A stretch of DNA of 32,000 nucleotides from Candidatus Harpocratesius repetitus (lineage in GTDB: Archaea; Asgardarchaeota; Lokiarchaeia; Sigyniarchaeales; Promethearchaeaceae), in NCBI GenBank assembly GCA_021498095.1, contig JAIZWK010000001.1, forward strand, positions 1,890,001 through 1,922,000, in the 5' to 3' direction. Every line of letters begins with the position of its first letter. Positions within the stretch are counted from its first letter, which is position 1. The position numbers were made by a program, and so were the translations under genes. Below the pieces are notes generated by a model. That model was given only the letters and a program-made list of their open reading frames with translations, did no database searches and was not told the origin of the DNA. Below, one piece after another: positions 5,787 through 14,982 of this stretch.

Positions 5787-6101
5787 AAGAATTCCTCCTT
5801 TGAAACAATTGAAATAAGTGATAATAATTCATTAATTTTTTCTTAACTTTGAAATCTCCTTAGTTTTTTTTTATTTATCATTTTATCGATGATTGAACGT
5901 AATAAATTTATACACTTGCAATTATTGTGCAGATAAAAAAGAGATTTTGTACACCAAATGAGAAAAAATAATTTAAACATAGTTTTTTACATTGTTCTTT
6001 GATTTCACTAAAAGGATAAATATTTTAGAGTGAAACGAAAATCTATAATTTAATAGTAAATAAGAATAGTGTAAGAAAGTTTTGTAAAGAAGGAATAAAA
6101 T

Positions 6102-9100
6102 ATGTCTCTGAAAGAAAGAATCCCTAAAATTTATGAGCATTATGGCCTTTCTGAAGCTGAATTAGATGTTTATACAGTAATTTTAAAATATACGCAAGTA
6201 ACAGTTTCAGAAATTGCAGGAATTTTGAATAAAAACAATTTAATGGAAATTCAACCAATTGTGGATAAATTAGAGCAGTTAAAATTCATTCATAAAATTC
6301 CTGGAATAGTAGATCGATATATTCCCCTCGAACCTTATTTAGAACTATTTGAAAAGGAAGCGCTACATTTTCGAGATGTTATTTCTGAAATAAAAGACAA
6401 TGTTTTAAGCGATCAAGCTTCACGATTTGAAAATTTAGAGGATAGTGAAAATTCAACCACTGAACAAGTGAATTCATATGTTGAAACTCAAATTTCTGAT
6501 GTTTTTCGAGAAAGTGATCAACAAGATGTTGAGAAAAAGACTTTAATAGAAAATGCCATTAATCGATATACTGAAACAAGTAAATCATTAGAACAGCAAA
6601 TTGAACAATCTACTTTTCAAGCAAGAGATCAATTTGAATCCACTCGTGTGGAATACACTGAAAAGGTTAAAAATACTACAGAAAATGCAAGAGATAGATT
6701 AAAAGAATCTTGTAAAAATTTAGAAGATGAAATTCAAAAGGGACTGTTTTTAGCTAGAGATCGATTTCAAGAAACTACTTCTAAAGTAGAAGATGAAATC
6801 CAAACTATCATGTATAATAGTCGAGATCGTTATGAAAAAACATCATTAGACTTAGAAAAAGATTTACATGAGCATATCGATCATAATTATGATCAATTTA
6901 AAACTGCAGTTAATTCACATGATACACAAGTAAATCAGATAATAGATGATCACATTACCAAGTTTAAAACAGATAAAGATAATTTTAATGCTCAAATCGA
7001 TGATTTCACCACTTCACATAAAACTCAATATCAAGAATTTGAAGTTGAAATGCATGGAATGATTGATGAATTAAATCAAGATCTAAAGCAAATTGCTGAA
7101 GAGTTTAAACAAACTTATGATAACACTACAGTAGATCACAAAAATACATGGAACCAAATTGTTGATGATATTTTGAAAGATTTTTCTGAGCGTGTTGATT
7201 CTTTAGAAAATGAGTGCAAACAACAATTGGATGAACATGTGGAATTACATAAAGAAAATGTCTCTGAACTGCATCCAAAAGTGAAGGAAACACTAGAAAA
7301 ATACCTAATGCGGATGAAGAATGTAGTTGATGATCTAAAAAATGAGTTTTCTAATTTGCTTACTAATCAAATTGAAAATAATAAGCTTTATACTGAAAAA
7401 ATTCAAAATGATATAAAAGAAAGAGTCGAAACACGCCACAGTGAATTAGCTGGTCAAGTACTTGCTTTCAAAAATGCTGCCATAGAATTGATGGATAATC
7501 TTAAAGATACAAGCGATCGATATGAAGGTTTGGCTCATGATCTTGCAAAACGCGGTAGTGCATGGAAAGCTTTGCTTTTTGGTAAACATAAGAAATTCTT
7601 AGAAAACTATAAAGAAATCCAAGAAAGAGTTGGAAAAATATCAGGTTCAATGAAAGCAAATTTTGAAGAAAGTACTGCTAATTATATCCAAAAAACAGGA
7701 GAAACAACCACTCAAATTAAAGAAGATATTGATTCGATTATCTCAACAGAAGTTCAAAAAATGACTTCAGATATAAAAGCTTTAGACACAAAACAAAAAG
7801 AAACATTGGGATTAGAATTAGGTGATCTTGCTCATGATCTTAATGAAGAAACCACATTACTTTTCCAAACTAATGTTGAACATTGTCAAACAACAACGAC
7901 TCAGCTTAAAGATAAGTTAGAAAATTCTCTACATACTCATCATGATGATTTTGAATTAGCTTTTAATAAACACAGACAAAATGTTCTTAAATTCAGCGAT
8001 GAAAGTAATTCAACTGCTAACGGCAAAATTGATCAATGGTATACTTCAATAGATTCTCGCCATGCATCTGGAAAACAAAAAGTTACTGGTATTGTGCAAG
8101 CACATGATCAGAATGTGGCAAATTACAAGCAACAAGTTATTTCTAACAATAATGAACATACAACATTATTAGCTACTGAAATGAGTGAATTCAAAAACCA
8201 ACAAAGGAAAGTATATGACACGCAACTTGATACCATTCGAAAGGATTTTGATTCAACTAAACAGACAATTTCTCAAAGTTTGCATAATCAAATTCAGCTT
8301 ATCAAAGACGATGTTCACAATTTAAATTCCATGCAACATCAAAAATTAGATGAACAAATTCAGCTGGTTAAAACAGAATTTGAAAAATTAAATGATTTAC
8401 AACATCAAAAATTAGATGAAGAAATTGCACTTTTTACAGAAGAAGTTGCTCAAATTAATAAGGTTCAACAAGAACAGATTGATAATCATATTGCTAAATT
8501 TAAAGAAATTATCCAATCACTTGATACAAAGCAAAAGAATGATATTGATTCACAAATTTCGTTAGTTACTGAAGAGTTTAACAAATTAGAGAATGATCTT
8601 CATGTGTTGTTAGAAAAACGGAAAGCTGATTATCAAGAAAAACTTAACAATTTGAAAACCGACTTGATTAAAACAATTCATGAAAACATCCAAGACACAA
8701 AGGATGCTATTGCTGATTTCACGCTTAACTTTATGAATTCAATTGATGAAGCAGTTGAAATTGCCGAAGAAGATGTAGATGAATTAAGTGCGATCAGTGA
8801 AGCTTCTCGCAACGTTCCTTCTTTAGGTCGAAGTGCAACTTGGCATGTATTTGGAACACAAGCATTAATTGAATCTATAATTGCTTCAATGAAACGAACA
8901 AAAAGCACCATAACAATCATTACTCCAACTGTAGAACCAAAAGTATTGGAAGCACTTTCACAAGTCGCTTATGAGAAGAAATCCGCGCGATTTTTATATA
9001 CTACAAATTGGGATTTAGGAAAATATGGTCCTATTGTTGAAAAAATGAAAGTTTTCGGAAATATTCAATTTAGGAATCTGAAAGGTGCTAACGACTTTTA

Positions 9101-9254
9101 TGCATTAGCTCGTGATGGTGAAGAAATTGTTCTCTGTCCTAAAGCCAAAGATGAAAAAGATCTTATTGCTATTGTTTCAATATTAGAAGGCTATGCACAG
9201 ATTTTCGGCAGTTTTATTTATCCAATATTCCAAGCCAATTCACGACCTATATAA
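6102..9254 (+). CDS. Giant TrmB-like protein: N-terminal wHTH, ~830-aa helical/coiled-coil rod, C-terminal TrmB/PLD-like domain
   Basis: N-terminus GLSEAELDVYTVIL...TVSEIAGIL...LEQLKFI...RYIPLEP (TrmB HTH). C-terminus WHVFGTQALIESIIASMKRTKSTITIITP...DGEEIVLCP (TrmB effector-like). The middle is Q/E/K-rich helix without ATPase motifs. Confidence 0.75.
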   Translation: MSLKERIPKIYEHYGLSEAELDVYTVILKYTQVTVSEIAGILNKNNLMEIQPIVDKLEQLKFIHKIPGIVDRYIPLEPYLELFEKEALHFRDVISEIKDNVLSDQASRFENLEDSENSTTEQVNSYVETQISDVFRESDQQDVEKKTLIENAINRYTETSKSLEQQIEQSTFQARDQFESTRVEYTEKVKNTTENARDRLKESCKNLEDEIQKGLFLARDRFQETTSKVEDEIQTIMYNSRDRYEKTSLDLEKDLHEHIDHNYDQFKTAVNSHDTQVNQIIDDHITKFKTDKDNFNAQIDDFTTSHKTQYQEFEVEMHGMIDELNQDLKQIAEEFKQTYDNTTVDHKNTWNQIVDDILKDFSERVDSLENECKQQLDEHVELHKENVSELHPKVKETLEKYLMRMKNVVDDLKNEFSNLLTNQIENNKLYTEKIQNDIKERVETRHSELAGQVLAFKNAAIELMDNLKDTSDRYEGLAHDLAKRGSAWKALLFGKHKKFLENYKEIQERVGKISGSMKANFEESTANYIQKTGETTTQIKEDIDSIISTEVQKMTSDIKALDTKQKETLGLELGDLAHDLNEETTLLFQTNVEHCQTTTTQLKDKLENSLHTHHDDFELAFNKHRQNVLKFSDESNSTANGKIDQWYTSIDSRHASGKQKVTGIVQAHDQNVANYKQQVISNNNEHTTLLATEMSEFKNQQRKVYDTQLDTIRKDFDSTKQTISQSLHNQIQLIKDDVHNLNSMQHQKLDEQIQLVKTEFEKLNDLQHQKLDEEIALFTEEVAQINKVQQEQIDNHIAKFKEIIQSLDTKQKNDIDSQISLVTEEFNKLENDLHVLLEKRKADYQEKLNNLKTDLIKTIHENIQDTKDAIADFTLNFMNSIDEAVEIAEEDVDELSAISEASRNVPSLGRSATWHVFGTQALIESIIASMKRTKSTITIITPTVEPKVLEALSQVAYEKKSARFLYTTNWDLGKYGPIVEKMKVFGNIQFRNLKGANDFYALARDGEEIVLCPKAKDEKDLIAIVSILEGYAQIFGSFIYPIFQANSRPI
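6621..6884 (+). repeat. Intragenic 66-bp (22-aa) tandem repeats, block 1
   Basis: ARDQFESTRVEYTEKVKNTTEN / ARDRLKESCKNLEDEIQKGLFL / ARDRFQETTSKVEDEIQTIMYN / SRDRYEKTSLDLEKDLHEHIDH, starting at 6621, 6687, 6753 and 6819. Confidence 0.8.
8289..8618 (+). repeat. Intragenic 66-bp (22-aa) tandem repeats, block 2
   Basis: QIQLIKDDVHNLNSMQHQKLDE / QIQLVKTEFEKLNDLQHQKLDE / EIALFTEEVAQINKVQQEQIDN / HIAKFKEIIQSLDTKQKNDIDS / QISLVTEEFNKLENDLHVLLEK. DNA similarity is visible (caacatcaaaaattagatgaa occurs twice, 66 bp apart). Confidence 0.85.
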
Positions 9255-13671: not shown

Positions 13672-14982
13672 TTGGATATGATCTCAAATCTTCGGGGAAA
13701 TCCATCGGCTACCACCGATATCGGAAAAATTATTCCCAATCAGATTAATCCACAGTTACTTTTAGATATTGCGGAAGTGGTAGATCCTTTGGTTTCCCAA
13801 AAATTGCCTCAGAAGCGAAGTGGATTTTCCTACACCATCTTCGTTTTATTTGCATGTTGTATGCAAATTTTAAGACTTTCGCCCCGACACACATCAGAAA
13901 TTTTCCAAGAAAAGTGTTCTCGCGCTCAAATTTCATTTCAATCCTACTCAGGTACCAAATTTTCAAATGGCAAACAACGGAGATTCTTCCCTGATCAACC
14001 TGCTTTTTCTCGATGTCTCCAAACCTTGTCTAAGTTAGATTTAGTTGAAGAATTTTGGAATTCTGTACTTTTAACACATATATTAATTCTCAAATCTTTG
14101 AAAATTGTAGGTTCAGATCTAAAGTTAATAGCAGATTATACTGATACACCGTGCAAGAAAAATGAAGACGATCCATATTGTTTCGGAAAAAAAGAAGGTA
14201 AAACAGTTCATCGAACGCTTAGTTTTTCCGTTATTTCAGGTGATTTTCATCAAATGATTGCTAATTTCAAGATTAAAAAGCGTCAAGATAAACTCCTCTT
14301 GTTTCACAATGTCCATGAGATGCTAATTTCTAACTGCTTTTCCATAAAATATGTTATGCTTGACAGAGGTTTTTATCGTAAACGAATACTAAAGTTCTTT
14401 CAGCGGAAGCACATAACCGTGATTATGCCAGGAAGAAAATGTACGCAGACAAAACAAAAAATTATGAACTAATTGAATGGAATTGGCAAAAAATACTGCA
14501 AAGGTGTAATTAAGGGTAAATACGTAAAAAAAGAGGGGTTTTCACCCATTAAATTCGATCTTCTGCTTGTTGCTAAACGCAGATTTAATTTAAAAGAAAT
14601 CATTCAAGATTTTAATCAAAAAAAGATCAGTGAACAAGTCGCCAGCAGCCGTATTTTTCCCCTAATTGTTATGTTCTGCTCAAAATCAGGCATAAAAACC
14701 CTACACGGCAATGAGAATTATATCCGAGATCTTTATCGCCAGAGATGGTTGATAGAAATCGCATTTCGTGAAATGAATCGGTTAGGTATTGCACAAAAGG
14801 TGCAAGATCGCAATATCCGGCTGAATATTATGGGAATGCGGTGCTTCTTGTACAATATATGGCAGACACAACGATTTCTAACAAAGAAAAGCGATCCTTC
14901 TGCAGCAGATTTAGAATTGAATGAATTTCTTAGAAAAATCATGCATAATTTACGCATTTACCAACATTCCATCCAAATTTAA
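13672..14982 (+). mobile_element. IS4-superfamily (ISH3-like) DDE transposase, interrupted by an in-frame TAA at 14470-14472
   Basis: Two consecutive same-frame ORFs (266 + 169 aa). Catalytic-type motifs IADYT, MLDRGFY and the IS4-type YRQRWLIEIAFR. Terminal inverted repeats not confidently found. Confidence 0.85.

Follow-up and report, generated by a model that had tools for sequence, protein, structure and literature searches.

A TrmBL2-like head on a predicted hendecad coiled-coil hairpin: a possible DNA-anchored spacer in Asgard archaea

In TrmBL2, a single helix links the winged helix-turn-helix (wHTH) to the PLD-like domain. What becomes of this plan, and what it may serve, when some 825 residues of helix stand between the two domains is the question raised by the open reading frame (ORF) at positions 6102-9254 of the DNA analyzed here, a window of 32,000 nt from the closed 4.36-Mb genome of the Asgard archaeon Candidatus Harpocratesius repetitus. 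A first-pass annotation made from the sequence alone had read its product (hereafter the rod protein) as a TrmB-type wHTH and an effector-like domain at the two ends of a continuous helical region, and had proposed that this region folds back on itself at a central break, possibly to serve as a DNA-to-membrane tether or a chromosome organizer. We find that the rod is a hendecad coiled coil whose two arms have changed length in equal steps. The best explanation of the whole, to which we give a probability of about 40%, is a TrmBL2-derived head on a hairpin rod, acting as a DNA-bound spacer with a membrane-binding apex. No description of this architecture of wHTH, rod, and PLD-like domain was found in the searched literature. 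The gene is divided as follows.

6102..9254 (+): whole rod-protein gene, 1050 aa; wHTH, predicted hairpin rod, and PLD-like domain; monocistronic
6102..6335 (+): TrmB-type wHTH, aa 1-78 (Pfam PF01978, AlphaFold2, structural superposition, conservation)
6336..7547 (+): N-arm, aa 79-482, a coiled-coil helix of the hendecad (11/3) type whose core is a-d-e-h (period, core pattern, AlphaFold2 helices)
7548..7598 (+): apex or turn, aa 483-499, a Gly-flanked hydrophobic/aromatic loop followed by a polybasic patch (AlphaFold2 break at aa 483-494, conservation, mirror center of the indels)
7599..8810 (+): C-arm, aa 500-903, hendecad helix predicted to run antiparallel to the N-arm (period 3.67, power 338; AlphaFold2 helices 495-727 and 808-903)
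8835..9251 (+): C-terminal PLD-like domain, aa 912-1050, of the TrmB/TrmBL2 middle-domain type, without the HKD motif (structural superposition with VIA, Foldseek, PF11495 in 7 of 53 homologues)

A rod of two matched arms

Between aa 79 and 905 the protein contains a single proline (P392), and AlphaFold2 predicts rod helices at aa 79-163, 229-482, 495-727, and 808-903, with the sole clean break at aa 483-494 (full model, predicted local distance difference test, pLDDT, 73). The hydrophobic residues recur with a period of 3.66-3.67 residues in every 66-aa stretch, and this period is phase-coherent over about 400 aa of each arm; the N-arm has a power of 330 at 3.667 against 4 at 3.5, and for both arms the power is about 330 at 11/3 but stays under 10 at 7/2. 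Folded modulo 11, the arms present a narrow a-d-e-h seam of about 3-4 of the 11 positions, with many polar residues in the core. The rod is a hendecad coiled coil, and because of this we regard as spurious the sub-threshold match to Pfam Apolipoprotein over the rod (PF01442, 60.7 bits against a cut-off of 90). Homology to apolipoproteins was rejected, since the match reflects periodicity only and the rod has no broad amphipathic lipid face.

The relationship between the two arms was followed through the homologues. A word-based search returned 110 of these, 666-1052 aa long, with lengths that cluster at 751, 831, 848, 961, 1006, and 1050. Indels were read from a 107-sequence alignment and arm lengths from 105 homologues, leaving out of the arm-length analysis the partial or contig-edge sequences P0006, P0008, P0024, P0026, and P0055 and the very distant P0111. 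Each indel in the N-arm has a C-arm indel of equal length, and no unmatched arm was found in the alignment. Pairs of 22/22, 44/44, 55/55, 66/66, and 88/88 residues lie at aa ~160-247 and ~732-819, pairs of 11/11, 18/18, 22/22, 51/51, and 62/62 at aa ~254-325 and ~647-722, and paired insertions of 11/11 and 22/22 at aa 295 and 675. All indel sizes are 11n or 11n+7, and they mirror each other about a point at aa 485-490, at the break that the first-pass annotation had placed at the midpoint (aa 484-499). Arm length was also counted independently of gap placement, as the residues between the invariant anchors P78 and G485 for the N-arm and G494 and W914 for the C-arm: the arms sort into 12 classes that span 257/270 to 407/420 aa, with r = 0.99999, and the C-arm exceeds the N-arm by 13 residues in 11 classes and by 15 in one. 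On a tree calculated from indel-free columns, parsimony places at least 19 length changes in each arm, always concurrent. An equal gain or loss of repeats in both arms had been named beforehand as a check on the fold-back, and it is what these homologues display.

The largest of the paired hot-spots coincide with two blocks of internal repeats:

6579..6842 (+): expansion block of the N-arm, aa 160-247, made of four 22-aa units that shorter homologues lack in steps (self-match, alignment)
8295..8558 (+): expansion block of the C-arm, aa 732-819, likewise made of four 22-aa units and mirroring aa 160-247 (self-match, alignment, 66-nt tandem repeat)

The protein matches itself at offsets of 22, 44, 66, and 88 residues at aa ~144-260 and 730-830, and the DNA carries a 66-nt tandem repeat at 8334-8470, so that the mirror-symmetric pair of 22-aa repeat blocks claimed at the outset is real. 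Judged from the alignment, the 1050-aa form found in this genus is the longest class, and each of its arms grew in steps by four 22-aa units. Covariation points to the same geometry: when scored as mutual information with average product correction (effective number of sequences 34), the 13 strongest anti-diagonals are confined to i+j = 971-985, and the scan showed no prominent parallel offset.

A comparable mode of growth has been described for the cytoplasmic hairpin of chemoreceptors (methyl-accepting chemotaxis proteins, MCPs), in which the two arms undergo symmetric indels and discrete heptad length classes result (PMC5907407). Like that hairpin, the rod would be a long single-chain antiparallel coiled coil with discrete length classes; unlike it, the rod protein changes by units of 11 (or 11+7) residues rather than 7 and has a DNA-binding-type head at its base. 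No MCP signaling domain was matched in the rod protein in Pfam at E <= 1, and no transmembrane segment and no CheA/CheW context were found. The likeness is confined to the geometry of the hairpin and its symmetric indels.

That the arms pair within one chain is likely. The monomer model folds back: along 305 residues, aa 322-654 match the chemoreceptor hairpin 2ch7, and aa 247-715 match Rad50 (VIA). When single PLD domains are aligned to the model, they take in residues 67-75 of the wing together with the C-domain, which makes the wHTH and the C-domain neighbors in the model; the first-pass proposal of an antiparallel fold-back that reunites the two TrmB domains is thus supported.

Two tandem mini genes on the metagenomic ENA contig k141_830479 (1861-2811 and 2914-4527) encode proteins of 316 aa and about 537 aa, the longer of which has an additional C-terminal extension, Lys/Pro-rich and with a Cys-x2-Cys. 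Both retain the equivalents of reference aa 1-112 and 852-1050 and nothing between, so that the rod is symmetrically absent and the hairpin has about 2 x 40 aa. The model of the 316-aa form (pLDDT 83) comprises the wHTH, a helix at 82-118, a turn, a helix at 124-167, and the PLD-like domain (C-domain Z 17.4), and its two helices match known helical hairpins. All parts of TrmBL2 align to this form but are arranged differently (208 residues of 5bpd, root-mean-square deviation, rmsd, 27 Å). When two copies of it were modeled as a homodimer with an alignment, the score was 0.38, below the mark of 0.42; one control reached 0.65.

The TrmBL2-like head

The wHTH stands as first annotated (aa ~1-75). 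Pfam TrmB (PF01978) matches aa 13-78 with 27.1 bits against a gathering cut-off of 25.6 and is precomputed on many homologues; AlphaFold2 gives helices over aa 7-59 and wing strands at 63-66 and 72-75, the model of aa 1-105 matches archaeal wHTH regulators with Z ~10 (VIA), and G15, F62, R72, P75, E77, and P78 are invariant among the homologues.

The identity of the C-domain was taken from fold comparison. Pfam returned no match for the last 140 residues of the window protein itself, single-sequence and profile searches of the C-domain against the PDB gave chance-level matches only, and PF11495 (Regulator_TrmB) was touched by 7 of 53 homologues with a marginal sequence similarity (best E 1.4e-5). 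In the AlphaFold2 model, aa 912-1048 superpose on TrmB 2f5t with Z 16.9 and rmsd 2.2 Å over 128 residues (VIA), and further on 3qph (Z 16.3), TrmBL2 5box (Z 15.3), and PLD-fold nucleases (Z 12-14); the top Foldseek matches of the rod-protein model are TrmBL2. A PLD/Nuc/Zucchini enzyme, to which these nuclease matches might point, was rejected because the catalytic HxK(x)4D motif is missing from the window protein and from the C-domains examined (0/53).

The alignment to 2f5t takes in chain residues 110-239 only, and the rod protein has nothing beyond the PLD-like domain, terminating at aa 1050. Because it stops where the sugar-binding beta-subdomain of TrmB would begin, the head is TrmBL2-like and not a sugar sensor, and a sugar-sensing TrmB sensu stricto is ruled out. 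The effector-like domain claimed from aa ~914 is therefore TrmB-like in structure, as proposed, but consists of the PLD-like N-subdomain only and contains no sugar-binding effector. Public annotation of the family is limited to "hypothetical" or "TrmB sugar-specific regulator," and the latter label is misleading since the sugar-binding part is missing.

TrmBL2, a chromatin protein of Thermococcales (5bpd, 5box, 5bpi, 5bqt), and TrmB (3qph, 2f5t) resemble the rod protein in beginning with a TrmB-type wHTH and in having a PLD-like domain that lacks HKD, and TrmBL2 likewise has no sugar-binding subdomain. The difference lies in the link: in TrmBL2, a protein of about 264 aa, some 55 residues (about 66-122) separate the two domains, in contrast to about 2 x 405 aa in the rod protein. 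Because the link here is a predicted two-helix antiparallel hairpin, the wHTH and C-domain would also be juxtaposed unlike those of TrmBL2. By analogy with TrmBL2, the head probably binds DNA.

The same PLD-like C-domain also occurs as a stand-alone unit behind a basic and probably disordered N-terminus, in four Lokiarchaeia proteins of 188-192 aa (P0122, P0124, P0127, and P0268); these are possible free partners or competitors of the rod-protein head.

The apex and the case for a spacer

At the far end of the rod, G485, G494, and K495 are at least 90% conserved, all 105 of the homologues have two or more aromatic residues in the apex, and its mean net charge is +5.6 against -1.5 for the rod, making it the most basic 20-aa stretch of the whole rod. 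The glycines form a Gly-x(4-8)-Gly breaker with a loop of varying length (5, 6, or 9 residues), and neither a Cys nor any other known hook motif was found in the apex. The central motif, whose conservation in homologues had been named as a check, is conserved in character. Exposed aromatic or hydrophobic residues next to basic ones, placed at a coiled-coil end or within a short amphipathic helix, bind membrane in DivIVA and in the targeting motifs of MinD/FtsA. The apex has no sequence or fold homology to these elements and is predicted to be an internal hairpin loop, which may bind membrane in a comparable way.

The explanation that we prefer assembles these parts in the following way. The linker helix between the wHTH and PLD-like domain would have been replaced by a single-chain antiparallel hendecad hairpin, with arms of about 405 residues; the rod would then measure about 60 nm in this protein, as against about 38 nm in the 751-aa form, which is the common one. 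With arms of this length in a hairpin, both domains would therefore lie together at the base as one head, which would bind DNA as TrmBL2 does, and the far end would be the conserved Gly-flanked loop, exposing its aromatic and hydrophobic residues beside the polybasic patch. A stiff rod of lineage-fixed length could act as a spacer or ruler, and the apex could attach to a second surface, for which the anionic cytoplasmic membrane would be the first candidate, so that chromosomal DNA would be held at a set distance. As a partner of the apex the membrane is a tentative and rather doubtful choice. That the distance itself matters is suggested by the fixation of rod length within lineages, as in the heptad classes of chemoreceptors (PMC5907407). 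A DNA-anchored spacer or tether is favored because of this lineage-fixed length, an apex built like a membrane- or partner-binding element, and the DNA binding of the head expected by analogy.

Several observations weigh against it. Low confidence in the model is confined to the two repeat blocks (pLDDT below 50), to which only a few homologues contribute residues and where the alignment is thin, and AlphaFold2 is biased towards a fold-back because it was run on a monomer. The paired indels and the covariation would fit an intermolecular antiparallel dimer equally well. A basic and aromatic apex could equally bind DNA, RNA, protein, or another apex, and a simple basic/aromatic score did not land at the predicted centers of distant paralogues, either because the motif is specific to this orthologous group or because the scoring heuristic is too crude. 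No membrane-related gene was found consistently adjoining the rod-protein gene in the relatives compared.

Of the alternatives, the one that fares best keeps the same hairpin but makes the apex a module for self-association or DNA binding, comparable with the Rad50 hook or the SMC hinge, with rods joined tip-to-tip or tip-to-DNA to bridge DNA segments at fixed spacing in an ATPase-free chromatin scaffold or roadblock. SMC, Rad50, and MukB do have a DNA-binding head at the base of an antiparallel intramolecular coiled coil of about 40-60 nm with a specialized apex, as in our reading of the rod; a conserved discontinuity in the rod arm is comparable to the SMC elbow, and Rad50 and Smc entries are among the structural matches of the model, which aligns to Rad50 coiled coils. 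Conserved hydrophobics that are exposed at an apex are often a sign of an interaction surface, and DNA could be bound by the polybasic patch. The chromatin protein TrmBL2, which is the closest relative, forms filaments and stalls Smc-ScpAB. Unlike SMC, Rad50, and MukB, the rod protein has hendecad periodicity and no ABC ATPase head, hinge domain, or zinc hook; its sequence lacks a Walker motif (G-x4-GK[ST]), and Pfam and NCBIfam scans gave no ATPase family; the likeness is one of coiled-coil geometry only. With an apex free of Cys and other known hook motifs, and an apex motif that is not common to the distant paralogues, we consider such a module unlikely.

A second alternative draws on a conserved discontinuity of the rod, the knuckle, about 95 residues from the apex and the best-conserved stretch of both arms:

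7227..7304 (+): knuckle, N-arm side, aa 376-401, with H379 and H383 in core positions, A387, L390, and invariant P392 (conservation; pLDDT dips here)
7848..7907 (+): knuckle, C-arm side, aa 583-602, with G591, D/H594, C595 (core position a), and T598 (conservation, pairing rule)

H379 (d), H383 (h), and C595 (a) are each at least 95% conserved, A387 and G591 form a small pair, and C595 faces H383 by the pairing rule i+j≈978; from this pattern we infer a kink and a candidate buried metal or redox site. The protein could then be a signal-responsive transcription factor, in which the rod would be a sensor and transmission element like that of chemoreceptor hairpins: His379, His383, Cys595, and Asp or His594 would serve as a metal site or redox sensor, and shifts of register along the hairpin would change how the head is arranged. 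In its favor are the conserved core residues, which face each other by the pairing rule next to the invariant P392. Single-domain TrmB proteins can be thiol-based regulators (bioRxiv 10.1101/2022.03.05.483106), and an inverted repeat surrounds a TATA-like stretch upstream of the gene. A sensor has, however, no obvious need for a rod of 38-60 nm or for lineage-fixed lengths, no conserved target operon adjoins the gene in the relatives compared, and the metal site is read from sequence only; we rate this explanation as quite unlikely.

If the arms paired between chains, two helices of about 120 nm would lie head-to-tail as an extended antiparallel homodimer, the N-arm of one chain on the C-arm of the other. 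The result would be a dumbbell, each of its ends formed by a composite wHTH/PLD-like head and its middle by the basic/aromatic motif, a ruler bridging DNA to DNA. Such a dimer predicts the equal-length paired indels and the covariation at i+j≈978 just as the hairpin does, and TrmB-family proteins reportedly dimerize via the linker helix in the structures of TrmB and TrmBL2. What speaks against it is the position of the conserved breaker of variable loop length exactly at the mirror center, where AlphaFold2 also breaks the helix, together with the mini forms, in which a short Asp/Gly-rich turn connects two helices of about 40 aa. Prokaryotes, moreover, are not known to have long antiparallel coiled coils other than intramolecular hairpins such as those of SMC, Rad50/SbcC, MukB, and chemoreceptors. 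We therefore hold the extended dimer to be improbable. An apolipoprotein- or perilipin-like lipid binder, in which the 11/22-mer amphipathic helices would open out and lie along the surface of lipid, could claim the Apolipoprotein match and the 11/22-residue periodicity, but is highly improbable given a score below the 90-bit cut-off, a narrow a-d-e-h seam typical of coiled coils and not a broad class-A lipid face, and a strict pairing of arm lengths that is unexplained if the helices act singly on lipid.

Genomic context and distribution

The start of the gene is supported by the N-terminus M1-S2-L3-K4-E5, which is nearly invariant in the 105 homologues; the top protein match to the ORF is from Candidatus Harpocratesius sp., with 94% identity. 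Upstream lies the presumed promoter region:

5787..6101 (strand not assigned): AT-rich intergenic region of 315 nt between the rod-protein gene and the divergent aIF5B gene; presumed promoter

Within it, about 60-100 nt upstream of the start codon, a 12-nt inverted repeat (5998-6009/6029-6040, 83% complementary, 19 nt apart) flanks the TATA-like AT stretch; it may be an operator, or a chance occurrence in AT-rich DNA.

The window has a G+C content of about 30%, and the genes around the ORF in it encode aIF5B, ribosomal protein S6e, an MtaA-like/corrinoid pair, a PiT phosphate transporter, and PAS kinases. The rod-protein gene lies in housekeeping surroundings, where it adjoins aIF5B, SecY, or ribosomal genes; neighbors differ between the relatives examined, and no conserved operon partner was found among them. 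Elsewhere in the window, the genes for an MtaA-like URO-D methyltransferase and a B12-binding corrinoid protein lie together at 1252-2948 on the minus strand, a pair that suggests the use of methyl compounds; the ORFs as listed share about 280 nt, so the URO-D ORF has probably been extended too far at its upstream start. At 13672-14982 lie two neighboring ORFs (266 and 169 aa), the second with a weak DDE transposase match; they are probably a split or degraded insertion sequence element.

Among species-representative genomes, full-length orthologues were found in 68 of the 75 genomes of the window's order (5/6 and 63/69 in its two families) and almost nowhere else. Some 751-aa members are named Thor-, Heimdall-, Hod-, or Hermod-archaeota at NCBI, which conflicts with this near-confinement to one order and suggests mislabeled metagenome-assembled genomes or a clash of taxonomies.

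The orthologue is single-copy in the window's genome. Its single copy, its presence in most genomes of the order, and its neighbors give the gene a housekeeping character, which counts in favor of the preferred explanation. A second protein of the same plan, very divergent from it, is encoded in the same genome at 3655095-3657926 on the minus strand; its 943 aa comprise a weak TrmB wHTH (19.9 bits), a helical rod rich in Ser/Thr/Asn with a sub-threshold Apolipoprotein match, and a TrmB-like C-domain. Distant paralogues in other Asgard lineages match in the head only, occur several per genome in frames of 477 to 1916 aa, and have rods of up to about 1,600 aa; a period of 3.62-3.69 was found in all rods tested. 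A profile of the C-domain searched against 1.84 billion representatives gave 273 clusters only, and the five looked-up clusters with an organism name were all Asgard (5/5); in an Atlas search, long forms were found only in Promethearchaeota.

Whatever its function, the series of paired 11-residue indels is an unusually clean natural experiment in the evolution of long antiparallel coiled coils. A broader reading, which we consider unlikely, is that the Asgard archaea possess a family of ATPase-free "ruler" proteins, with a TrmBL2-like head on DNA and a reach of 38-60 nm (more than 100 nm in the paralogues) to the membrane or another structure. If this is true, the rulers would be a chromosome-associated structural class, apparently restricted to Asgard archaea, unlike histones, Alba, SMC, or the small nucleoid-associated proteins, and they would set nucleoid-to-membrane or DNA-to-DNA spacing in a lineage ancestral to eukaryotes, as a prokaryotic functional analogue of chromatin-envelope tethers. 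Asgard archaea are the closest prokaryotic relatives of eukaryotes, and a fixed-length chromosome spacer or tether in them would be one that the searched literature does not describe. As Lokiarchaeia are in culture, a device for DNA-membrane spacing would be open to test, and would bear on the architecture of the cell before eukaryogenesis.

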